64,000 nucleotides of DNA. It comes from an uncultured Pseudomonadota bacterium (GTDB taxonomy: Bacteria > Oederibacteriota > Muellerivitia > Muellerivitales > Muellerivitaceae). Numbering within the stretch: the first letter of the stretch is position 1; the number at the start of each line of letters is the position of its first letter. Of this stretch, positions 5,506-62,790 are shown one piece after another. The DNA is taken from NCBI GenBank assembly GCA_963836235.1, contig CAWIIP010000004.1, forward strand, positions 1 through 64,000. The letters run 5' to 3'. The position numbers and the translations under genes were made by a program. A model generated the notes under the pieces. That model saw only the letters and a program-made list of their open reading frames with translations, was not told where the DNA came from and searched no databases.

Positions 5506-8500
5506 ATGGATATTCTTCAAAACTTCTATGACCCCAAAATGATTTTGTCTTTCTTCAAAAGTTTTAGGTTAAGAGTTTCATTTTTAAGTCTTTTTCCCCT
5601 TTTTGTTTTAACGCCAGGCCTTGTTTGGGCCCAAAGTCCCACCGTTCAAATTATAGGTGAATCCACAACCAATCCTGTACCAGGGACCACTATGTACGTG
5701 ACGGTTACGGTATGTGACGCATTTACTTACAACAGTAATCCGGATACCCGTCCCAAACTAATGGTCGCCATTATTTCAGGATCGGGACAAACCACTCTCA
5801 ATCCAAGCTGCTCCACTGCGGGTCAATATTTGGTGGTCGATAGTAATATCTCGGGGAATATCGCGACGGGTCCAGGGATGTATGACCAGACCAGCGGAAC
5901 GCAAGGCGTCGGTGGACCGCCGGTCTATCCGAACATTAATGTGGTGGCAAACGCTTCTTGCGCGGCAAACGCTGTCACAGCTATTTGGCCAATCTACATT
6001 GATGGGAGTTTTTTAGCGGCTGGTAACTATAGTTTTGTCGTCGTCGCGGCTGAGGACTACATCACTTGTAGTACTAGTCCCTATTCATCGGCAAGTTTTA
6101 ATTTCACGGTTCCGTTCCCCCCGCCCAATATCACCCTTTCGAAAATCGCCGACGGAAGTACTGCCAACGCCAATGACTTGGTACTTTTCCGGATCGATTA
6201 TACTTACGTGAATACCGGGGCCGTGACGATTACTGACAACATTCCCGCCAATGTGACGCTTGTGAGCGGTGGGGGAGCCATTAGCCCTGGAGGAACTTTA
6301 AACGGTTCCACGGTTACATGGGTCTTGCCCGCTTCTTCCCCCACCGTCACCGGAACGGTTTGGTTTCTGACTCGCGTCAATAGTGGTGTTACCTCAGGAA
6401 CGGTCATTACCAATACGGCCTCGGCCGCCTCCGCCAGCGTGGGAACCGTCACCTCCAATCAGGCCCAAGTCGATATTGGTTCGGGTGGCTTTACCCTTTT
6501 GAAAAGTGAGTCTGCAACATCACTTGCCAGCGGCAATACGATAACTTATACCTTGAATTACGAAGTCAGCGGCATGAGTTTGCAGGTTTATGATTCTTAC
6601 GACAATGTCAGCAGTGGAGCCGCTGCCGCCCTTGGTTGTTCGAATGCTTGGGGATTCGACAGTACCGACTATTGTTATGCCAATGTGGGTGGGATGGGGG
6701 GCTTTACCATGGAAACGGATGCCTCAGGAAACCACTATCTTCAAGGATGCGCATATAGCAGCTGCAATTCCAGCGTGACTAATGGCAATTTCCCAACCTT
6801 GCTTCGAAGTGGTCCTCCAGTCAGCCTATGCAATAATTTTATGGTGGAAGGAGATATGGAAATTCCCGTCGGTTCAGCTACCGGGGGCGACGCCACCATG
6901 GTCATCGCGGATAATACTGCCGTGGGCGGGGTGGATGATGCCTATATGATCGGTATTTCCCTAGACTGTGGGCCAGGAAATTTTTTCATCCAAAAAAACA
7001 ACCAGAGTGGCGGCGGAACCGTCACATGGCCTGCAACTGAATGTGACGCCGCAATTGGGACCACGATTACGGCTGGCGTTTGGTACACGGTGAAAGTGTT
7101 GGCGACTTATTCGGCCGGGACGCTGACTTTTCAAGCGAAAGTCTGGCCCAGGGGTTCCGCCGAACCCACGACTTGGAGCATTAATTACGCTGATGCGGCT
7201 CCTTTGCCATGCACACCTAACTCTGGCGGAACATACCAAATAGGCTGGCAGGCGGATGGAACAGCCTCAACGGATTATTTTTCTAATCTGAAATTGTACA
7301 CTCCCGATCCCGTGGTGAACCCCCGCTTGTGGGACACAATCCCGACCGGTGAAACTTATGTCACATCAAATCCGGCTTATACAAACAAAACGGGGAACTT
7401 GCTCGAATGGGATCTTGGCGGCGCGCATCCTGTGACTACTTATGACTTGACGGGAGCCATTACTTGGTCCGCAACCGTATCCTGCGGAAATCCGGTGAAT
7501 GTCGCCGCTATTATGGGGGATGGACCGGCTTCCCAAGTGGTTTCCAACTCGGTTACCCTAGCTGTTTCCGGGTGTTCTACAAATACTCCAACCAATACAG
7601 CCACAAACACCCCTACGAAAACTCCAACTTTAACACCAACCAATACCCCGACTTTTACACCGACATTTACCCCCACCAATACCGATACGATGACGCCCAC
7701 TAGCACCATTACCAATACCCCTACTTCGACGCCTACTTTTACAAATACCAATACTCCGACCGACACCGCCACACCCACATCTACCAGTACTCCTACAAAT
7801 ACCAATACGATGACGCCCACCAGTACAGTTACCGATAGCCCTACCCTGACGCCTACTTTTACCATTACCAATACTCCAACCGACACTGCCACGCCCACAC
7901 CCACTAGTACGCCTACGAATACCGATACGATGACTCCCACCAGCACGGTTACCGATACCCCCACCCTAACGCCCACTTTTACTATTACCAACACTCCGAC
8001 TAACACTGCCACACCTACCCCTACCAATACGCCTACGAATACCGCGACAGTCACGCCAACTTTTACACCTACCAATACTCCAACCCAAACCCCGACTTCC
8101 ACCTCCACGAATACCGCCACTAATAGCCCTACCACCACACCCACATTTACCGCTACGACTACACCAACTCCTTTTGTGGCGGTTAATATCGGCAAGACCG
8201 TTTCGGACACCAGTCCTCTTGCAAATGAGACTTTGACTTATGGCATAAATGTCAGCATTCCAGATAGTCCGGCTTCGGGAGTGACTATTTCCGACACGAT
8301 TCCGGCGGAGCTTCAATATATCGGAGCGAGTCCCATTTCCAATCCCCCTGGTCCGGGAAGCTTCACGACATTCGGACTTCCAACACCTGGCCCCACGCCG
8401 GGAATGGGAACACTTTTAGTTTGGACTTTTCCTGGACCCATTCCGCAGGGAAATTACACCCTGAATTACACCGCCAGCGTCCCTAACTTTGTCCCCGCCG

Positions 8501-54186: not shown

Positions 54187-56835
54187 ATGAAAAAACATCC
54201 AAGATCATTTGAATTTTACCGGCTCTTTTCTGTCATTTTTTTAGTTGGCGGATTTGTGGTCGTAATTTTTGATCCGAACCTTCTCGCCGGTATTTTTCAT
54301 CGGGCCGCTGCCCTGAAATCGACTCGACAAGATTCTTCCGGGGAAATGAAATTTAAAAGATCCTACGGCCAACTCCCATTGATCTTCGAACCCAACGAAG
54401 GCCAAACCGATCCCCGGGTGAGCTATTTCTGCCGGGGCGCGGGATACAGCCTATTCTTGACCCCGAAAGAAGCGGTGCTCACCTTAAGACAACCCGAACC
54501 ACCATCCCGCCATCCGGGCCGCGAGAAGGGCCAGGCCTTGCCTCTCGAACCGTCCCGGGTCCGGGAGAGGGTGTTGCGCATCAAGTTAAAAGAGGCCCAA
54601 TCGCCTTCCTCGGTGGAGGGGATGGATAAATTGGAAGGTACCAGCAATTATTTCATCGGCAAGGACCCCCGAAAATGGCGCACAGGGATCCCCCAATTCG
54701 CCAGGGTGAAATTAAAGGATGTTTATCCCGGCATCGACATCGTTTATTACGGCAACGGGGGAAAATTGGAGTATGACTTCGTGGTAAAACCGGGGGCCGA
54801 TCCGAGGTCGATCCAGATGGCTTTTGAGGGCACCCAAGGGATGAAGTTGGTCGATGGCGATTGGGTTTTGAAAGCGGGGAAAGACCAACTGGTTTTTAAA
54901 GCGCCCGTGATCTATCAGCCGCAAGGGGGCTCGCGCAGAAGGGTGGAGGGACGGTATGTGCGGATGGGGCCTCATCAGCTGGGTTTCCAGGTGGATGGCT
55001 ATGACCCGACGCGAACGCTTGTCATCGATCCCGTATTAGATTATTCGACCTATTTGAGCGGGAGCGCCTCGAACCAGAGCTTCGGGATCGCGGTGAACTC
55101 CAGCGGAAATGCTTATGTGATCGGACAGGTTACTTCCATTACTTTCCCAACGACGGCAGGGGCCTTCCAGACCGCCCCCCCTGGCGGTACCTCGGACGCT
55201 TTTGTCTCGGAGCTGAACGCCGCCGGGACGGGGTTGGTCTATTCGACCTATTTGGGCGGGACGGGGATAGAGGGCGCCATGAAGATTGCGGTGGACGCCG
55301 CGGGAAATGCCTATGTGGTGGGAGTCACCAGTTCCACCGATTTTCCCATCACGCCCGGAGCCTTCCAAACGGCCTCCACGGGGGTTACCTATAACATTTA
55401 TTTGACCAAATTGAATCCCGCCGGGACCGCCCTCGTTTATTCCACGTACTTTGGCGGGAATGCCGACACGCAATGCGACGCCCTCGCAGTCGACAACACC
55501 GGGCAGGCTTATATCGGCGGCTTTTCCAGCGCCACCAATTTACCCACAACGGCCGGCGCCTATCAAAGCACGATGAAGGGAAGTACCAACGCCTATGTGG
55601 CAAAGTTCAACGCCCTCGGGACGGCTTTGGTGTACATGACTTATCTGGGAGGGACCAATTATGACGGTCTTTCTGGGATCGCGTTGGACCCTTCGGGGGA
55701 CGCTTATCTCTGCGGCGGGACCCGCTCCGTCGATTTCCCCACGACCGCCGGAGTTTTTAAATCGGCTTATGGCGGGGGAATCAATGATGGCTTTGTGGCC
55801 AAGTTGAATCCCACTGGTACTGCCTTGTTGTACTCTACTTACCTGGGTGGAAGCGGGAACGACAGCATCTCCGGTATCAAAATAGATTCTTCGGGAGACG
55901 CCTATATTGCCGGCGGCACCACTTCCGTGAATTTCCCCACCACCGCGGGCGCTTATCAAGGCGCGTTGGCGGGAAATACCAACGTCTTCATCACTGAATT
56001 AAACCCAACAGCCACTTCATTGATTTACTCCACCCTCCTGGGAGGCAGTAATAATGATGCGGCCTATGGAATGGATATGGATTCCTCCTATAGGGTCTAC
56101 GTGACGGGGCAGATCAATTCGGTGAATTTTCCAACCACCGCGGGGGCGTTCCAAACGGTTTTTGGGGGTTTCGACGATTCCTTTATCAGTGTCATGAACC
56201 CGACCGGCACGGCCTTGGTCTATTCCAGTTACCTCGGAGGGAGCAGTGAGGACGTGGGCTATGGCATTGCCTTGGACCCGGCCGGGAACGCTTATCTGGC
56301 AGGCTATACCTGGTCGACCGACTTTCCCACGACGGCGGGCGCTTACCAACCGGTGTACGGCGGCGGAAGTTCCAACGCCTTTGCCGCTAAATTCGACGTG
56401 ACGACCTTTAGCATCCCCGCCATCACCGCAACCCCGACCTCCACTCCGACGAGTAGTCCAACTTCAACGCCCACACCCTTGGTTACCAGCACGCCCACTT
56501 CCACACCGACCTTTACGCCGACCGCCCTGATGACCAACACGCTCACACCCGGTTCAACTTCAGGCTGTGTGATCCATGTTTGGCCCAATCCTTATAGCTT
56601 GAAATACGCCCATGACCATGCCTTGAAGTTCAGCTGCCTGCCCGCGAACGCCGAGGTTTATATCTATACGGTATCGGGCGAGTTGGTGGCCCAGTTCGGC
56701 CCCTCCGGCGACCCCACCGAATGGAAAGATGGGAAAAATCTCAATGGGGCCAGTGTTTCCTCCGGCATTTATTATTACGCTATTCAGAATGGCCAAACCC
56801 TCTTGCAACGGGGTAAGTTTTTGATCACACCTTAA
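54187..56835 (+). CDS. SBBP repeat protein (paralog) with C-terminal sorting-like domain
   Basis: Same architecture as the previous gene; VWPNP...IYTVSGELV...SSGIYYY...GKFLI. Confidence 0.88.
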   Translation: MKKHPRSFEFYRLFSVIFLVGGFVVVIFDPNLLAGIFHRAAALKSTRQDSSGEMKFKRSYGQLPLIFEPNEGQTDPRVSYFCRGAGYSLFLTPKEAVLTLRQPEPPSRHPGREKGQALPLEPSRVRERVLRIKLKEAQSPSSVEGMDKLEGTSNYFIGKDPRKWRTGIPQFARVKLKDVYPGIDIVYYGNGGKLEYDFVVKPGADPRSIQMAFEGTQGMKLVDGDWVLKAGKDQLVFKAPVIYQPQGGSRRRVEGRYVRMGPHQLGFQVDGYDPTRTLVIDPVLDYSTYLSGSASNQSFGIAVNSSGNAYVIGQVTSITFPTTAGAFQTAPPGGTSDAFVSELNAAGTGLVYSTYLGGTGIEGAMKIAVDAAGNAYVVGVTSSTDFPITPGAFQTASTGVTYNIYLTKLNPAGTALVYSTYFGGNADTQCDALAVDNTGQAYIGGFSSATNLPTTAGAYQSTMKGSTNAYVAKFNALGTALVYMTYLGGTNYDGLSGIALDPSGDAYLCGGTRSVDFPTTAGVFKSAYGGGINDGFVAKLNPTGTALLYSTYLGGSGNDSISGIKIDSSGDAYIAGGTTSVNFPTTAGAYQGALAGNTNVFITELNPTATSLIYSTLLGGSNNDAAYGMDMDSSYRVYVTGQINSVNFPTTAGAFQTVFGGFDDSFISVMNPTGTALVYSSYLGGSSEDVGYGIALDPAGNAYLAGYTWSTDFPTTAGAYQPVYGGGSSNAFAAKFDVTTFSIPAITATPTSTPTSSPTSTPTPLVTSTPTSTPTFTPTALMTNTLTPGSTSGCVIHVWPNPYSLKYAHDHALKFSCLPANAEVYIYTVSGELVAQFGPSGDPTEWKDGKNLNGASVSSGIYYYAIQNGQTLLQRGKFLITP

Positions 56836-56839
56836 CGTG

Positions 56840-56869
56840 TTGTCCACGACGGGGACCCGTCGTGGACAA
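56840..56869. repeat. 30-bp palindrome, copy 1
   Basis: TTGTCCACGACGGG-GA-CCCGTCGTGGACAA (perfect 14-bp arms). Confidence 0.95.
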
Positions 56870-56884
56870 GGATAATAGGGACAC

Positions 56885-56913
56885 TTGACGTATAACGCTC
56901 TCCGTTATACCCT
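56885..56913 (+). promoter_or_regulatory. higBA promoter with overlapping operator
   Basis: TTGACG-N17-TACCCT; inverted repeat GTATAACG-N5-CGTTATAC (56890-56910). Confidence 0.7.
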
Positions 56914-56919
56914 TAAAGA

Positions 56920-57201
56920 ATGATCCGAAGCTTTAAGGGTAAAGAAACCGAGCTTATCTTCAACCGGACTTTTTCCCATCGGCTGCCCCACGACATTCAA
57001 ACGGTGGCCTTTCGGAAACTCCGAATGATAAGCCGGGCGGTATCCTTAAACGATTTGAGGGTTCCCCCAGCAAACCATTTGGAAGCCCTGCACGGGAACC
57101 GTAAGGGCCAACACAGCATTCGGATTAATAATCAATGGCGTGTTTGTTTTGAATGGCGCGCGGGGGACGCACATAACGTTGAGATCGTGGATTACCACTA
57201 G
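56920..57201 (+). CDS. higB: HigB toxin (RelE/ParE superfamily, plasmid killer type)
   Basis: MIRSFK.KETE, DLRVPPANHLEALHG.RKGQHSIRINNQWRVCFEW and VEIVDYH. Confidence 0.95.
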   Translation: MIRSFKGKETELIFNRTFSHRLPHDIQTVAFRKLRMISRAVSLNDLRVPPANHLEALHGNRKGQHSIRINNQWRVCFEWRAGDAHNVEIVDYH

Positions 57202-57209
57202 GAGGAAAA

Positions 57210-57512
57210 ATGAAGACAGCTAAAATTCCGCCGCTACATCCAGGCGAAGTTCTTCAAGAGGAGTTTTTAGCTCCCATGAAGATCAGCCAAAATAAGCTGG
57301 GTCAGGACCTGGGGGTCCCTCCCCGCCGCATCAATGAAATCATCCAGGGGAAAAGGGGCATCACAGCCGATACCGCCTTGCGCTTGGCCAGGTATTTCAA
57401 CATGTCCCCCCAATTTTGGCTTGGCTTGCAAATGGATTTTGAGTTGGACCAGGAAGCAGACCATCTTGCATCCCGCCTCAAAAAGGAAGTCCACGTCTAC
57501 CAGGCTGTTTAA
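57210..57512 (+). CDS. higA: HigA antitoxin (HTH Xre)
   Basis: PLHPGEVLQEEFL, RINEII.GKRGITADTALRLARYF and FWLGLQ. Confidence 0.95.
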   Translation: MKTAKIPPLHPGEVLQEEFLAPMKISQNKLGQDLGVPPRRINEIIQGKRGITADTALRLARYFNMSPQFWLGLQMDFELDQEADHLASRLKKEVHVYQAV

Positions 57513-57527
57513 GATCGGTTCCATGGG

Positions 57528-57557
57528 TTGTCCACGACGGGGACCCATCGTGGACAG
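57528..57557. repeat. 30-bp palindrome, copy 2
   Basis: TTGTCCACGACGGG-GA-CCCATCGTGGACAG. Confidence 0.95.
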
Positions 57558-57608
57558 GTAAAAGGGGTATAATCCAATCTTCGTTACGCTTCTATAATTG
57601 AGGCAAGT

Positions 57609-58742
57609 ATGAATCGACTTTTCCTTATCGCGGTAATCCTCTTGATCGGCCTGTTCCCCCTGGCTTGCCAGAAGACCTATACGTTAGGCCCTCTGAGCGT
57701 TCCAACTCCCGCTCCACCTCCCACCAAAACCTTTACCGCCACAGGTTCGCCTACCCCCACCTGTAGCGGGAAAATCGTTTCGACCTTGGCGGGGTCCGGG
57801 TTGGTTGGAGCCGTCAACGCCACTGGTACAGCCGCGTCGTTCAATTTCCCTACGGGGGCCGCCGTGGATTCTTCCGGGAATGTTTATGTGGCGGATACTT
57901 ACAACAACCTGATACGGGAAATCACGTCAGGTGGGGTAGTAACGACCTTGGCCGGGTCCGGGGCGATTGGAGCCGTCAACGCCACCGGGACCGCCGCGTC
58001 CTTTCATACTCCCTACGCCCTGGCGGTGGATTCTTCGGGCAATGTTTATGTCGCGGATACCATTAACAACCTGATCCGGATGATAACCCCCGGTGGGGTG
58101 GTGACCACCTTGGCCGGAGGCGGGCCTTGTTGCGCGGTAAACGCAACGGGAACCGCCGCTTCGTTCAACGGACCTTGGGGAATAGCCGTCGATGCTTCCG
58201 GAAACGTTTATGTGGCGGATCAAACCAACGACCTCATCCGGAAAATTACCCCGGGCGGCGTCGTGACGACCCTGGCGGGATCGGGTGCCTGGGGGGCCAC
58301 CAACGGAACCGGAACCGCCGCGTCTTTTTATAATCCCGTTGGACTCGCGGTCGATTCTTCGGGGAATGTTTATGTCGCGGATTCTTACAACGACATGATC
58401 CGGAAAATCACTCCGGGAGGCGTGGTGACGACCCTGGCGGGGTCCGGGTCAGCCGGCTCGGCCGACGGAATCGGGACCGCGGCGTCTTTCAATATGCCCC
58501 TTGGGGTCGCGGTGGATTCCTCCGGAAATGTTTACGTGACGGACGCGTGGAACAACCTGATCCGTGAAATTACCCCAGGGGGCGTGGTGACGACCCTGTT
58601 GGGAAAAGTGGGGGTCGCGGGTTCAACCAACGGAAATTGCTACCAGGCCCTTTTCAACCAGCCTGATGGAATCGCGGTGGATTCCTCCGGGAAAATCTAC
58701 ATCGCGGACCAGGACAACAACCTGATCCGGGAAATCCAATAA
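57609..58742 (+). CDS. NHL-repeat lipoprotein
   Basis: Lipobox PLAC; six repeats of ASF..P.G.AVDSSGNVYVAD..N.LIR.ITPGGVVTTLAG. Confidence 0.9.
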   Translation: MNRLFLIAVILLIGLFPLACQKTYTLGPLSVPTPAPPPTKTFTATGSPTPTCSGKIVSTLAGSGLVGAVNATGTAASFNFPTGAAVDSSGNVYVADTYNNLIREITSGGVVTTLAGSGAIGAVNATGTAASFHTPYALAVDSSGNVYVADTINNLIRMITPGGVVTTLAGGGPCCAVNATGTAASFNGPWGIAVDASGNVYVADQTNDLIRKITPGGVVTTLAGSGAWGATNGTGTAASFYNPVGLAVDSSGNVYVADSYNDMIRKITPGGVVTTLAGSGSAGSADGIGTAASFNMPLGVAVDSSGNVYVTDAWNNLIREITPGGVVTTLLGKVGVAGSTNGNCYQALFNQPDGIAVDSSGKIYIADQDNNLIREIQ

Positions 58743-58772
58743 ATTCCAATTCGCCCTTTTGATATAAAAAAT

Positions 58773-58802
58773 CTGTCCACTACGGGGACCCGTCGTGGAC
58801 AA
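58773..58802. repeat. 30-bp palindrome, copy 3
   Basis: CTGTCCACTACGGG-GA-CCCGTCGTGGACAA. Confidence 0.95.
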
Positions 58803-58849
58803 CAAAGAATTGCCTGCACATGCCTGTCGCAAAAAGGATAGTGTGCAAC

Positions 58850-59120
58850 CGATGCTCTTTTTGATGCTTCGGCACCTTTTGTGAGTGAAGTAGGTAGTGA
58901 TTTGGCCGTTGGCGCATTGGAAGCAGGGGGAGCAGCATTGGCCTCAGTTTCGGGGCCTTTGGCTCCGCTGGTGGAAGAGGGAACACAAGCGCTTGCACCC
59001 CTTGCCTATGTTGCCGGTTCGACCGCGGCATCGGCAGGTTGGAAATATATTCAACAACAAGCCGCTCCCGTAATAAACAATGCGATAAGCACCATTAGTG
59101 GGTGGTTTTCAGGACCGTGA
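58850..59120 (+). pseudogene. 5'-truncated gene fragment (Ala/Gly-rich hydrophobic C-terminus, polymorphic-toxin-like)
   Basis: The frame is open up to the repeat boundary (DALFDASAPFVSEVG...ISGWFSGP*); no SD for the internal GTG. Confidence 0.5.
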
Positions 59121-59147
59121 TTTTTCTTTTTCAATTTTAAAGATTAA

Positions 59148-59633
59148 GTGAAGTGGTTTGAAATGAAAAACACAAAAGTTTATGGATCTAAATTCACTGT
59201 TTTGCTCATGGGACTTTTTTTAGGGATGAGCCTTTTTGTTCTTGTGAAGAAATTGGGGGAACCAGATGCCGAAATCACGAAACCAATCTTAATAGTTGTC
59301 TTTGGTCTGTTTTTATTTTTGGTGGCTTTTAATCGAGCATTAACCCCTCGATGGACCTATGACGAGAGTGGAGTCACGATGAAAAACTCATTTAAGCCAA
59401 AAGATGAAAATTTTTGGCCTTGGAGTGAAGTTGTTGGCATTTATAGACGCGCTTATTGGTCGTGGAATTACTACATCGATTTTAAACGCGGGGGTGTCAT
59501 GGTTAGTTTTCTCTGGACTAGCAATCATTTAAGGATTTTAGTGGATGCGGTACATTTTGCACAAAAAAATAACCCAAATGTGGAAATTACACCTTCTGTT
59601 TTGGGAAAAGTTAAAAAATATTTTAACCGATAG
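59148..59633 (+). CDS. Hypothetical 2-TM membrane protein (immunity-like)
   Basis: Two TM segments followed by a PH-like soluble part; AT-rich; lies inside spacer 1. Confidence 0.7.
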   Translation: MKWFEMKNTKVYGSKFTVLLMGLFLGMSLFVLVKKLGEPDAEITKPILIVVFGLFLFLVAFNRALTPRWTYDESGVTMKNSFKPKDENFWPWSEVVGIYRRAYWSWNYYIDFKRGGVMVSFLWTSNHLRILVDAVHFAQKNNPNVEITPSVLGKVKKYFNR

Positions 59634-59689
59634 ATATTTTTGAAAAGTAACTTTTGGGCAACAGTTAGTAGATTGAAAGGCGTTTGTTA

Positions 59690-59820
59690 ATGAATGGCGA
59701 AGTTTTTAAAAATTTAAAAAGTGCCAAGAGATTATGGGGCTTATTGCTGTTTCTCACTTTGGGAAACAGCTCAATATCTTTCGCCCAGACAGCCACGCCT
59801 ACCCCCATGCCCACGCCGAC
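59690..59820 (+). pseudogene. 3'-truncated gene: signal peptide + TPTP linker cut by the repeat
   Basis: MNGEVFKNLKSAKRLWGLLLFLTLGNSSISFAQTATPTPMPTPT runs directly into repeat 2. Confidence 0.6.
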
Positions 59821-59864
59821 CCTGCACATGCCTGTCGCAAAAAGGATAGTGTGCAACTAACTAA

Positions 59865-60635
59865 TCACTTTTCCGAAGATTTTAATTCATTCAATATTTC
59901 TTTTGATTTCTTTTCCAACTCTTGTCGATTCCCCCTAAGACTCAAGTTCGTTTTATGATATTGTTCAACAGTTTGCTTATATGAAATTCTCAATTTTAAT
60001 CTCTTCTCACGGTTCAAAAAATATTGATCGGCGGTACTTTTCGAACCAAACGTTTTAATTTTGCGATCTTTATACTCTCCATATATTTTGGAGCCCGTTA
60101 TTTTTTTGAATATTTGATCCGTTAATTCGTTTGCGTTTTTCAGACCACCTTTATGCCAAGTCAATTTAGAATAAGTCCCATTAATCATCGCCTCTTCCCT
60201 AATCCATTGACAAAGATCATCAGTTTTACCATCGCCCAATTCGTTTCCTAATTGATCCGCTTTTTCAATTCCCTCTTTTTGTTTTGACTTCACATTCATT
60301 TGATCTATCGGCATACTTTCGGGATTATTGTGTGCACCCATCGAAGTTAGATCGTTGGATAAATCTTTAAGTTTTTTAATTAAAGCCATTTGATCATCAG
60401 TTAAGTTCAACGATGACACCGATATTAAATCTTCATCCACTTTTGGTAAAAAACCGGATGCACTCCAAATCTTTATTGCTCGAATTTTTTCGGCAGACAC
60501 TGGCAAAACCTCAGAAGTAATGGCGGGTGTTTGAGCAATAACCCATCTAATAGGCGCAGCCCAAAGAACCAATATTTCAAAAGCAAAAATCATTTTCCGC
60601 CATTTTTGAAATTTCATCCCTGTTTTGAAATCCAT
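59865..60635 (-). CDS. Hypothetical secreted protein inside spacer 2
   Basis: 256-aa ORF with signal-like N-terminus and GGGGGA SD; stop codon 7 bp from repeat 2. Confidence 0.7.
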   Translation of the reverse strand: MDFKTGMKFQKWRKMIFAFEILVLWAAPIRWVIAQTPAITSEVLPVSAEKIRAIKIWSASGFLPKVDEDLISVSSLNLTDDQMALIKKLKDLSNDLTSMGAHNNPESMPIDQMNVKSKQKEGIEKADQLGNELGDGKTDDLCQWIREEAMINGTYSKLTWHKGGLKNANELTDQIFKKITGSKIYGEYKDRKIKTFGSKSTADQYFLNREKRLKLRISYKQTVEQYHKTNLSLRGNRQELEKKSKEILNELKSSEK

Positions 60636-60953
60636 TACATCCCCCTGATGTGGTTTGCCCTAAGCGTTGTCGAAGGGTTGGTGTTGTTTAAACGAAGGTG
60701 AGCGAGGTAAAAGCGAAAACTTTTTCAGTTGGACTATATCAAAACGATAAATATTTACTATGTTTAAAGGTAAATGGCCTGCACATGCCTGTCGCAAAAA
60801 GGATAGTGTGCAACGGTTCAAGCTCTTATTCAAAATAATGATGGGAATGGGCGAAAGTGGGGTTTCGGGCCTATTTTAGAAGCCTGAAGAAATCATTTAA
60901 AAGAAAAGCAGTTATGCCATTTTTTGGAAATAAAAGATAATGGCAATATGTAG

Positions 60954-60983
60954 TTGTCCATAGTGGGGACCCTGATTGGACAA
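60954..60983. repeat. 30-bp palindrome, copy 4 (degenerate)
   Basis: TTGTCCATAGTGGG-GA-CCCTGATTGGACAA. Confidence 0.8.
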
Positions 60984-61018
60984 CCCAATCCCTTCAACCC
61001 GCTATTTGAGGATGTGAG

Positions 61019-61366
61019 TTAAAATGGCACCAGCACAAATCTCCCATAGGCAACGAATAGGACCAGGAGAGCGGGCACCAAAGCCCAGAGAAAGCCCTGA
61101 AACTTGACGCCGGTCAACGCGGAAACTGATACCGTTTCGACGGCTACGCAGACTGCCACGATGGGGGTTAGGATGGGCAGTATCCCGATTGCTCCAGGCA
61201 AAACCAGGCCTAAGGCGAACAGGGCCTGGAGCACACCCAGAGCCATCCAGGCGGGCTTTGGCAGAATTTTCAACCAGACCCCCGGGACTTTAAATACCAT
61301 CCAGCTCCCGCCCATCAAATAGTACAAGCACAGCAAAATTTGAAGCACCCATAGCAGAATGTTCAT
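61019..61366 (-). CDS. DoxX-like family membrane protein
   Basis: MNILLWVLQILL, GLVLPGAIGILPILTPIVA and FVAYGRF. Confidence 0.8.
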   Translation of the reverse strand: MNILLWVLQILLCLYYLMGGSWMVFKVPGVWLKILPKPAWMALGVLQALFALGLVLPGAIGILPILTPIVAVCVAVETVSVSALTGVKFQGFLWALVPALLVLFVAYGRFVLVPF

Positions 61367-61490
61367 CCTAGTCTCCTCGAATTCGCCGGCGCGCGGCCAG
61401 CTTATTTTAAAACGCTGTCATCGCCTAAGGTACAAAGGGGCCCGACCTTTTTTCCACCTCCGTGTCGTAACGGAGAGGACGGGCGAATTA

Positions 61491-61552
61491 TGTCACACCC
61501 TTCCCCCTTGATTCGTCATTATCATGACGGATAAGAATAGGAAAATGTGACA
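61491..61552. promoter_or_regulatory. Two face-to-face ECF41-type promoters
   Basis: TGTCACA-N16-CGTC on + (61491-61517) and on - (61552-61526). Confidence 0.75.
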
Positions 61553-61569
61553 AGGGAAAGGGGCACAAA

Positions 61570-62463
61570 ATGGCTGAAAGCGATCGGCTGGCTGACCGGT
61601 TCCAGGAGAACCGCTCCCATTTACGGACCTTGGCCTACCGGATTCTGGGCTCCAATGGGGAAGCCGATGACGCGGTCCAAGAGGCCTGGCTCCGCCTGAC
61701 GCGCTCGGACGTTCAAGCGATCGAAAACCTGGGTGGGTGGCTTACGACCGTGACGGCCCGGGTTTGCCTGGATATGTTGAGATCGCGCAAAACCCGGAAA
61801 GAAGAATCCATCCAAGAGAATATTTTGGAAATGCCGGAAAACCCCAGCGCTCCCAATCCGGCGGATGAGGCCCTGCTGGCCGACTCCGTGGGTTCGGCCC
61901 TCTTGATCATCCTTCGCAGCCTGACGCCCGCCGAGCGGGTCGCCTTTGTTCTGCACGACATGTTTGACCTGCCTTTCGATGAAATCGCTCCGATCGTGGG
62001 CCGGTCTGAACCGGCGGTGAGGCAGCTCGCCAGCCGCGCCCGCCGCAGGGTCCGGGGAGGCGGGGAAAGCCGGGAGGACGAGGGAAAAAAACGGGAGATC
62101 GTCTCGGCCTTCCTGGCCGCCTCCCGGGAGGGACATTTCGACGCCCTGCTTCAATTACTCGACCCTGAAGTCCTGTTGGACGCGGATGACACCGCCGTCA
62201 AAATCACCACGGCCAACAAAGACAAGGGCGCGCCGCCTTTCCAAAGCCGCATGCGAGGCATGCGAAAGGTCGCCGAAACCTTCAAGGGCCGGGCTGTGGC
62301 CGCCCAACTGGCCCTTATCGACGGCTCGGTGGGAACCACCTGGATCGGCGGCGGAAAACCCAGGGTAGCTTTCCTGTTCGCGATCGAGAAGGGGAAGATC
62401 CGGGAAATCAACGTGGTCATGGACCCCGAGGATTTGGGCAAAATGAAAATCGAGCTTCTGTAA
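61570..62463 (+). CDS. ECF sigma factor with SnoaL-like C-terminal extension (ECF41/SigJ type)
   Basis: AYRILGS..EADDAVQEAWLR, LTPAERVAFVLHDMF, RQLASRARRRV, AFLAA...LLDPEV. Confidence 0.9.
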   Translation: MAESDRLADRFQENRSHLRTLAYRILGSNGEADDAVQEAWLRLTRSDVQAIENLGGWLTTVTARVCLDMLRSRKTRKEESIQENILEMPENPSAPNPADEALLADSVGSALLIILRSLTPAERVAFVLHDMFDLPFDEIAPIVGRSEPAVRQLASRARRRVRGGGESREDEGKKREIVSAFLAASREGHFDALLQLLDPEVLLDADDTAVKITTANKDKGAPPFQSRMRGMRKVAETFKGRAVAAQLALIDGSVGTTWIGGGKPRVAFLFAIEKGKIREINVVMDPEDLGKMKIELL

Positions 62464-62790
62464 AATCAAAAAAGATCAGAATTTAAAGTGAAGACTTGAC
62501 GAATAGGGGTTAGGTATAAGTTGTGAAATAGGGATTCTGAAATTTTTCCACGAGATTCTTTACCTCTTCTTTACCCGTTTCGGGAACCTTTTTTTAAAAA
62601 AAAAGGTAATCTTAAAAGACTTGGAGAAATTAATTTTAAAAAAAGATATTGCCGGGAATTTATTTTTTAATATTCCGGCGGGCCGGTGAGTTTATTTTAA
62701 ACACACCTTTCTTGCCCGTTGGTTTCCTTCGCGGGGGCGGATAAATTCCACCGGTCTTTTTTTCGATAATCAAAATTTAATGAGGAACGC

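Follow-up and report, generated by a model that had tools for sequence, protein, structure and literature searches.

A 37-bp repeat that separates gene-sized inserts in an uncultured bacterium, and a cas1-cas2 module that may act on it

Three identical copies of a 37-bp direct repeat (R1, R2 and R3) alternate with two unrelated, gene-sized inserts (S1 and S2) in a 64,000-nucleotide stretch of DNA from an uncultured bacterium (assembly GCA_963836235.1, contig CAWIIP010000004.1, positions 1 to 64,000; hereafter the window), and the only cas1-cas2 pair of the same genome lies 22 bp from a further copy of this 37-mer on another contig. Our leading interpretation, to which we assign a probability of about 0.5, is that the repeat serves as the target of a Cas1-Cas2 integrase, which duplicates it on inserting long DNA, the window array being a satellite without cas genes that is acted on in trans. 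A preliminary description of the window had likened the array to a CRISPR array and proposed an integrase that duplicates a fixed site while inserting pieces constrained to about 1 kb. Its account of the array holds: the three 37-bp copies carry no mismatch, no copy arose in 100 dinucleotide-preserving shuffles of the window, and the inserts of 971 and 920 bp share no sequence relationship and are lower in GC than their flanks (0.5-0.6) and than the contigs of the genome (about 0.50). The proposed integrase fared in two ways, in that the repeat does behave as a duplicated site and has a candidate enzyme in Cas1-Cas2, but the size constraint has to be given up: the 29 inserts measured in all sources span 68-12,050 bp, with a median of 2,223 bp.

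The genome that contains the window (G000; 3.97 Mb in five contigs numbered C1 to C5, 99.4% complete) has a single Cas1 match, at C1:431817-432857 (Pfam Cas_Cas1, 3.2e-68; TIGR00287, 250.9 bits against a cut-off of 71.7). Among solved structures the protein matches CRISPR Cas1 best (4n06 at 9.8e-35, and 7cr6), with the casposase 6opm at 1.3e-25, and in an alignment of 39 relatives with 59-84% identity the residues E172, H232, D244 and E247, which we take to be the active-site and metal-binding residues of Cas1, are invariant. Some of the relatives at this level of identity in the protein collection are labelled Patescibacteria; plasmids yielded 33.5% identity at best, and viral contigs yielded no close relative. 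The start of a 111-aa open reading frame (ORF) overlaps the cas1 stop by 4 bp. This ORF itself has no match in Pfam or NCBIfam, and a HMMER search with its product recovered 60 distant relatives; 22 of 48 aligned homologues match Pfam CRISPR_Cas2 (best 2.9e-21), and a profile of the homologues reaches the Cas2 structures 3exc (1e-4), 7f84 (3.6e-4) and 4qr0 (7.9e-4). The first beta strand carries W-E where the aligned Cas2 structure shows Y-D, and on the evidence of its homologues the protein is classed as a divergent Cas2. A model of the complex of Cas1 with the 111-aa protein scored 0.68, compared with 0.00 for the best of three controls, with contact agreement of at least 81% across runs and a predicted local distance difference test (pLDDT) of at least 80 for the partner; of the solved complexes 58 of 80 attain that score, and of the mismatched pairs 2 of 110, counts that hold approximately here because we supplied our own alignments. 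The model supports binding of the 111-aa protein by Cas1, although the pass may just mirror likeness to solved Cas1-Cas2 complexes. A copy of the 37-mer lies at C1:431426, 22 bp past the stop of the 111-aa ORF, and it reads CCTGCAC...GTGCAAC (direction F) in the same direction as cas1-cas2. The preliminary description had seen no cas gene in the window and supposed that any enzyme would act in trans; our ORF and Pfam scan of 56500-62500 likewise yielded no cas ORF, and because the sole cas1-cas2 of the genome stands beside the same 37-mer, action in trans on the window array is now a concrete proposal. As for effectors, the search of G000 took in the RAMP family, which had no match, and the Cas3 core, which had none above cut-off; it did not extend to Class 2 effectors. 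The open frame past the cas-linked repeat was at first assigned to the C-terminal part of a type I methylase; this could not be upheld, as that frame has no Pfam, NCBIfam or PDB match, and the sole N6_Mtase match of G000 lies elsewhere.

The module travels with the repeat. G000 and G012, which come from different genera, share a 1,504-bp block at 98.07% identity, and this block stops at the final base of the repeat; elsewhere, matched stretches of G000 and of the G012 loci compared with it have 65-85% identity. Five of 99 genomes of the phylum, from four genera of one family, contain cas1 (96-100% amino-acid identity, with nothing weaker reaching E 1e-40), and all five contain the repeat. In a sixth repeat-bearing assembly, G023, which is 89% complete, this cas1 query found no match. 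Five full-length copies of the module (97-100% DNA identity), each preceded by a 31-bp palindrome of a second repeat family that is described below, run through the repeat into five different sequences, and cas1-cas2 heads all five of the arrays that begin with a module; examples occur in G012 and in G078 (the same assembly as G041), where one module copy heads 11 repeats over 53 kb. Comparison of cas1 between genera gives a ratio of nonsynonymous to synonymous substitution rates (dN/dS) of 0.05-0.07, which places cas1 under purifying selection. Taken as sequence comparisons, these results establish that the module is linked to the repeat and has been transferred between genera.

The strongest evidence comes from alignments in which the same DNA is joined to repeats at varying end points and in both orientations. 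In G078, which belongs to another genus, S1 recurs as an 885-bp insert between two repeats (C3:399838-400722) that is 100% identical to window positions 58893-59777, is inverted, and is 43 bp shorter at either end. The two 43-bp end pieces (58850-58892 and 59778-59820) are mutually unrelated, and the equal trimming could reflect chance or a cut at a fixed distance from the repeats. Further end points of S1 were found in contigs from four soil sequencing runs, which were compared with 57400-61600; they leave large parts of this region uncovered, including most of S2. In run X2 the end of a repeat joins window position 59083, and position 59671 (up to 59675) joins repeat-like sequence; in run X3 position 59702 joins the start of a repeat. 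A 997-nt contig from run X1 is identical to the window from 59216 to 59822 and continues with 390 nt of non-repeat sequence, and we read it as the uninterrupted form of the gene that R2 cuts in the window. Since X2 and X3 come from one study and the contigs are short, the support they add is limited. Two further regions behave like S1. An IS200-type region of G078 meets repeats at two right-hand points, and at a third place it begins at a repeat and extends past both. The mobile-element region C2:190006-198810 starts in G000 at a repeat copy with two mismatches, and in G078 its other end meets a repeat in the opposite orientation (95-99.5% identity). The pattern is, as far as sequences can tell, that of an integrase or transposase that would cut both borders of a fixed target, join arbitrary ends and duplicate the target.

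The repeat itself is sharply defined. G000 contains ten copies: the three of the window, three on C2, separated by 68 and 1,327 bp, three that stand singly on C1 at intervals of about 25 kb, and the C2 copy with two mismatches. The flanks of all ten have nothing in common beyond the 37 bp, so the repeat is exactly 37 bp long. Among 40 other relatives searched with up to three mismatches, the repeat occurs in two, G012 (11 copies, including a four-repeat array with inserts of 1.3-1.6 kb) and G023 (two copies). A scan with a 29-base core of one genome per species, covering 185,579 species, found 30 stretches, in assemblies named 'candidate division FCPU426 bacterium' and in one named 'uncultured proteobacterium', which is G078; four further stretches came from Joint Genome Institute (JGI) metagenome contigs. 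G078 can be placed in the family of the window genome and shares its palindrome family, and its label is probably wrong. The other arrays and the linked cas1 for which the preliminary description recommended looking are thus both present in related genomes. The 53 copies that we examined, from six assemblies and 25 of them from G078, are all full 37-bp copies with sharp borders and differ at no more than three positions. Of the two positions that vary in relatives, one lies in the bulge and the other changes a pair on the F strand from A-U to G-U; the variant is uniform within each array, as would be expected from local duplication. The closest spacing of copies in any source searched is 68 bp, and a k-mer scan of G000 found no short-spacer array, regular spacing of 40-120 bp occurring only in coding tandem repeats. 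Copies within an array share their orientation, except for one inverted pair in G078 (C3:400723-400905), in which two 37-mers stand tail to tail around a 109-bp spacer; it is the sole such pair among the 53 copies. G001, a genome of the same genus as G000, has at most 81% identity and no synteny at the window locus, and the palindrome family is abundant in it.

Genes are frequently cut where they meet the repeat. A PolX-like ORF, for example, runs through its thumb domain to residue 344, which is the start of a repeat, and is followed by an unrelated proline/threonine-rich frame; the PHP-domain matches of G000 include none that adjoins a repeat. Similarly, a GmrSD_N domain breaks off at position 103 of its 199-position profile, with a FecR domain beyond the repeat, and RHS-repeat frames confirmed by Pfam begin at the repeat in two loci. 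A truncated cas1 copy begins at codon 104 straight after a repeat, with no microhomology, and two C5 genes of G000 (249 and 346 aa) have truncated counterparts in G012 and in a G023-like locus, which retain about 87 and 151 codons before the cut. Overall, open frames of at least 100 codons abut 34% of 99 repeat sides, compared with 11% of 104 palindrome sides. Reading frames of at least 60 codons enter the 53 repeats in all three frames (4, 7 and 11) and leave them in all three (9, 8 and 14). A role of the repeat as a coding element or recoding site was dismissed on this basis, and although several ORFs obtain their stop codon from the repeat, the stop in one repeat frame is incidental given entry in every frame. 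No terminal inverted or direct repeats were found in the inserts (27 inserts, 40-nt ends), the longest match being 8 bases and the control maximum 9; the cargo is therefore sequence-independent. The preliminary description had allowed that the 37-mer might be the end of a known insertion sequence (IS) or miniature inverted-repeat transposable element (MITE), or a scattered repetitive extragenic palindrome (REP). Scattered it is, some of the ten copies of G000 being solitary, but it is no IS or MITE end, and simple insertion of a REP or MITE was rejected because the flanks are unrelated (PolX against the proline/threonine-rich frame, GmrSD_N against FecR), because there are just ten copies and because ORFs run through in all frames. 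Pfam annotation of ten array ORFs returned a D12 adenine methylase, a SRAP peptidase, a UmuC-type polymerase, an IS200-type transposase and cut genes.

The dyad symmetry noted in the preliminary description is real. As RNA, the window + strand of the repeat folds into a two-part bulged hairpin of -12.5 kcal/mol (z -3.1, with none of 200 shuffles as good), compared with -9.1 kcal/mol for the opposite strand (z -1.0, 37 of 200 shuffles as good); folding of the 37-mer as DNA is weak on both strands. The earlier reading had started from the minus strand (GTTGCAC...) and attached meaning to its CRISPR-like GTT start. The functional strand is probably the opposite one, CCTGCAC...GCAAC, given the direction of cas1-cas2, the stronger RNA fold and the variant that keeps a G-U pair. 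The last 8 nt, past the inner hairpin, are similar in position to a CRISPR RNA (crRNA) tag. No Rfam family, CRISPR-DR included, matches the repeats even at E up to 10, and the sole Rfam hits over 56500-61500 are two chance-level matches outside them.

In the mechanism that we propose, a mobile adaptation module would consist of cas1, the overlapping divergent cas2, 22 bp and the 37-mer. In CRISPR integration the two borders of a repeat are attacked on opposite strands and the repeat is duplicated; Cas1-Cas2 would here attack both borders of the 37-mer in the same manner, joining long double-stranded DNA instead of prespacers of about 30 bp. Gap repair would then duplicate the 37 bp and leave repeat-insert-repeat at each insertion, and repeated events would build arrays of gene-sized pieces from mobile elements and chromosomal DNA. 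The array R1-S1-R2-S2-R3 would have been built or extended in trans by the single cas1-cas2 copy on C1. We infer the enzyme and its staggered attack from gene linkage and repeat structure; duplication of the repeat on integration is suggested by the exact copies around every insert and by the variable end points. The Cas1-Cas2 model is placed first because this is the sole enzyme consistently attached to the repeat and because it is under purifying selection. In a fuller form, for which we put the odds slightly short of even, a CRISPR-type Cas1-Cas2 without a spacer-length ruler would insert pieces of 0.07-12 kb or more, would work without effectors and would spread as a 1.5-kb cassette, making it either a present-day counterpart of the intermediate that has been proposed between casposons and CRISPR or a CRISPR-derived analogue of integrons. 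We likewise infer some benefit to the cell, such as gene capture or memory. Either selection for captured genes that are expressed or a store of mobile-element DNA would agree with the orientation bias of insert genes and with the cargo, which comprises toxin-like fragments and genes of defence and of mobile elements. The 'memory' of the preliminary description stays unproven, with neither RAMP nor Cas3 core found above cut-off in G000.

A number of observations weigh against this interpretation. Linkage of cas1 to the repeat could be hitch-hiking, if the 37-mer simply belongs to the cas cassette. The Cas1-Cas2 complexes known so far gauge the length of their prespacers, and to our knowledge kilobase substrates are without precedent for a CRISPR-type Cas1. 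Most arrays, including that of the window, have no adjoining cas gene and no shared 'leader', and beside cas2 the 'leader' amounts to 22 bp plus the end of the cas2 gene. Constraint on cas2 is weaker than on cas1 (dN/dS 0.29-0.46 between genera), and one G078 copy of cas1 has an internal TAG. Repeat borders cut genes often, yet below the chance rate, since 73% of 4,000 random positions fall in long open frames, above the 34% recorded for repeat sides. The insert end 5' of the repeat is AT-rich (GC 0.34, compared with 0.45 deeper inside; A accounts for 61% at position -5), so capture is not random and has some integron-like flavour. Insert genes are mostly F-oriented, in 22 inserts compared with 6 among the 28 that have coding frames; one insert lacks a long frame. 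Two inserts of G078 contain genes for IS200-type (Y1) transposases, and G012 encodes a 312-aa protein (Y1_Tnp with a DnaA-C helix-turn-helix) about 0.5-1.7 kb from two 37-mer arrays (L038 7842-8780 and L039 ~6868-7898). Finally, all of the data come from metagenome-assembled genomes and short contigs. Homologues of the 312-aa protein in G000 (about 71% identity) are located away from any 37-mer.

Compared with CRISPR arrays, the system is alike in its 37-bp direct repeat (typical repeats are about 23-55 bp) with internal dyad symmetry and near-identical copies, in the cas1 and Cas2-family genes that lie directly upstream of the cas-linked copy and in the same direction, and in the exact repeats that flank each insert, identical modules being followed by different first inserts. 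It is unlike them in that inserts of 68 bp to 12 kb carry whole and cut genes where CRISPR spacers are uniform and tens of base pairs long, in the lack of RAMP, Cas3 core and CRISPR-DR matches noted above, in having many arrays without cas neighbours, and in its minimal leader. Casposons are transposons that encode Cas1, and tandem insertions at one target are known among them. The likeness is that a Cas1-family integrase would insert kilobase DNA and duplicate its target, so that target and insert alternate. In contrast to casposons, terminal inverted repeats are lacking, no insert carries cas1 except in the form of the one truncated copy, Cas2 is present, Cas1 is closest to CRISPR Cas1 structures, and the duplicated unit is 37 bp, whereas casposons duplicate about 14-15 bp of target. 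Ends of a casposon or other transposon were looked for and rejected, there being no terminal repeats and no conserved flank past the weak AT-rich bias.

An alternative that we consider improbable but take seriously is that the 37-mer is the site of another enzyme, either a recombinase of the tyrosine or serine class resembling those of integrons or an HUH (Y1) transposase that binds hairpins, that the cassettes are shuffled, and that cas1-cas2-repeat is one relic cassette of a decayed CRISPR system. Genes in integron arrays are mostly co-oriented, and the orientation bias of the inserts (22 to 6) agrees with this, as do the stop codons that the repeat supplies to several ORFs, the location of arrays in regions rich in the clearly recombinational palindrome family, the Y1 transposase genes in or near some arrays, several ORFs for tyrosine recombinases of about 370 aa in G000, and the bulged hairpin of the repeat. 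Integrons and clusters of attC sites without an integrase also resemble these arrays in their kilobase units, hairpin-forming site and mostly co-oriented genes, in the variable first position after a head unit, and in being chromosomal. However, no recombinase stands consistently beside the arrays, whereas cas1-cas2 heads five of five that are module-led, and an integron integrase is absent, with TIGR02249 reaching 40.9 bits at best in G000 (cut-off 265) and 14 control genomes giving similar sub-threshold matches. Sites of the attC type span about 57-141 bp with paired R and L boxes (RYYYAAC...GTTRRRY); the 37-bp unit does not have this layout, and by eye just its 3' end, GTGCAAC, approaches the core motif. 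An integron proper was accordingly rejected, with IntI absent and the site layout unfit. More generally, conservative recombination between one 37-mer and another cannot yield new end points or an inversion trimmed at both ends, nor does shuffling agree with genes cut at the borders, with the same DNA having three or more borders, or with repeat variants that are identical within each array and never mixed.

More doubtful still is the view that there is no capture system, only dead CRISPR repeats in mobile-element islands where breaks provoked by the hairpin, illegitimate joining and recombination between copies have rearranged the DNA. Some copies are indeed solitary between unrelated sequences, the regions that hold the arrays are variable and contain IS copies and genes of mobile elements, and two family searches (RAMP and Cas3 core) found no interference genes. 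Undirected breakage, however, would not preserve 53 of 53 copies at full length with uneroded borders, and it does not account for copies that are co-oriented within arrays apart from the one inverted pair in G078, for strong purifying selection on a cas1 whose module has recently spread over four genera, or for five module copies that each precede a different first insert.

There is very little likelihood that the repeat is an RNA element carried by mobile elements, such as a Racr-like decoy, a processing site or a stabilising hairpin, with the arrays being tandem mobile-element remnants. CRISPR repeat units, solitary or in mini-arrays, occur on mobile elements (Racr; PMC10651486), and solitary units reported from phages mimic CRISPR repeats. 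Such units resemble the present repeat in lying off effector loci and amid mobile-element genes. The strand-specific fold, the variant base that keeps its pair as G-U, and inserts that hold mobile-element genes 99-100% identical between genera also speak for an RNA element. Set against the Racr-like units, the 37-mer is linked to cas1-cas2, is duplicated around inserts and has no fixed place in its carrier DNA. Its position relative to neighbouring genes varies, the same DNA meets it at several points and in both orientations, it cuts genes, the two families searched leave no effector in the host genome for it to decoy, and no Rfam family matches it. An assembly artefact is extremely unlikely, for although all sources are metagenome assemblies, the genome is in five contigs and 99.4% complete, the kilobase-spaced repeat recurs in five other assemblies and in JGI contigs, independent short-read contigs from soil cross repeat-insert junctions, and S1 is 100% identical between two repeats in another genus.

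Within the literature collection searched and the search terms that we chose, there was no account of Cas1-linked arrays with kilobase inserts. Should the Cas1-Cas2 model be correct, the CRISPR integrase would not be restricted to short spacers in nature, and the arrays would offer a testable natural case bearing on the relation of CRISPR adaptation to Cas1 transposons. They would represent a new route by which bacteria gather genes and fragments from mobile elements, integron-like in its effect, and a compact system, two proteins with a 37-bp target, by which DNA of kilobase length might be placed at a defined site. If the work is done by some other enzyme, joins with exact borders and variable end points at a 37-bp site would still constitute undescribed genome plasticity in a little-studied candidate phylum.

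The inserts of the window carry whole and cut genes. S1 contains a frame open at its 5' end that stops at 59120, a complete ORF for a 161-aa membrane protein at 59148-59633, for which Pfam returns just a weak bPH_7 match below cut-off, and about 50 initial codons of a signal-peptide protein, which R2 truncates. A single 256-aa ORF occupies S2 on the minus strand (59865-60635); it has an N-terminal signal-like segment and no Pfam family. Its 5' region (60579-60743) is 83% identical to DNA of G018, which yielded no copy of the repeat.

Table. Coordinates of the 37-bp repeat array and of the palindromes in the window, and of palindrome arrays elsewhere in the genome (contigs C1, C2 and C4 of G000).
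Feature	Position	Strand	Description
Palindrome	56840-56870		in window
Palindrome	57528-57558		in window
31-bp palindrome, second repeat family, 11-8-11	58773-58803	+	left border of array cassette, 9 bp before R1
Repeat R1	58813-58849	+	exact 37-bp copy; + strand reads CCTGCAC...GTGCAAC, direction named F
Insert S1	58850-59820	+	971 bp, GC 0.42
Repeat R2	59821-59857	+	exact 37-bp copy
Insert S2	59858-60777	+	920 bp, GC 0.35
Repeat R3	60778-60814	+	exact 37-bp copy
Low-GC tail	60815-60952	+	138 bp, between R3 and next palindrome
Degenerate palindrome GTTGTCCA...TGGACAAC	60953-60985	+	right border of array cassette
Palindrome array	C2:1192091-1202651		elsewhere in G000
Palindrome array	C4:137273-145409		elsewhere in G000
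Palindrome array	C4:854527-860178		elsewhere in G000
Palindrome array	C2:1476169-1480656		elsewhere in G000
Palindrome array	C1:376352-382830		elsewhere in G000

The palindromes of the second repeat family (TTGTCCACGAC-GGGGACCC-GTCGTGGACAAC) have two 11-bp inverted arms around an asymmetric 8-bp centre, a layout like that of lox or dif. G000 contains at least 52 of them, co-oriented and 0.5-4 kb apart in several arrays. Upstream of the module, five cas1 copies become identical inside a palindrome, the arm on the cas1 side being the same in all and the outer arm variable; the cas1 copies of G042 and G043 have other upstream sequence without a palindrome. The 11-8-11 layout, together with the exchange of arms between copies, is suggestive of a site-specific recombinase crossing over in the centre, and the palindrome arrays look like an integron-like cassette system. 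The array of 37-mers in the window lies within one palindrome unit, in the order palindrome, 9 bp, R1 to R3, 138 bp, palindrome, and in G078 a single unit of 56 kb consists of a palindrome, cas1-cas2, eleven 37-mers and the next palindrome. Seven of the ten 37-mers of G000 lie within a palindrome array or no more than about 2 kb from one.

Several observations concern mobile DNA near the repeats. A segment of about 7.7 kb is apparently 100% identical between genera (C2:1355284-1363006 of G000 and C3 ~385301-393023 of G078), as judged from two pieces of 1,902 and 2,668 bp seen at its ends; in G078 it lies within a 9.2-kb insert between two 37-mers and is presumably a mobile element. In G000 a 1,361-bp element with a 406-aa transposase-like ORF is present in two copies that are 100% identical (C1:403436-404796 and C2:913860-915220), each located 0.5-2.7 kb downstream, in the F direction, of a 37-mer. 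Next to the window array, the palindrome unit 57528-58803, which ends at 58803 and encodes a 377-aa NHL-repeat protein, is 100% identical over 1,276 bp to C2:1195350-1196625, which is consistent with recent movement of the whole cassette. The unit upstream of it (56920-57512) encodes a HigB-like toxin (Pfam, 1.1e-19) and an HTH_3 protein, and toxin-antitoxin pairs are typical cargo of cassette arrays.

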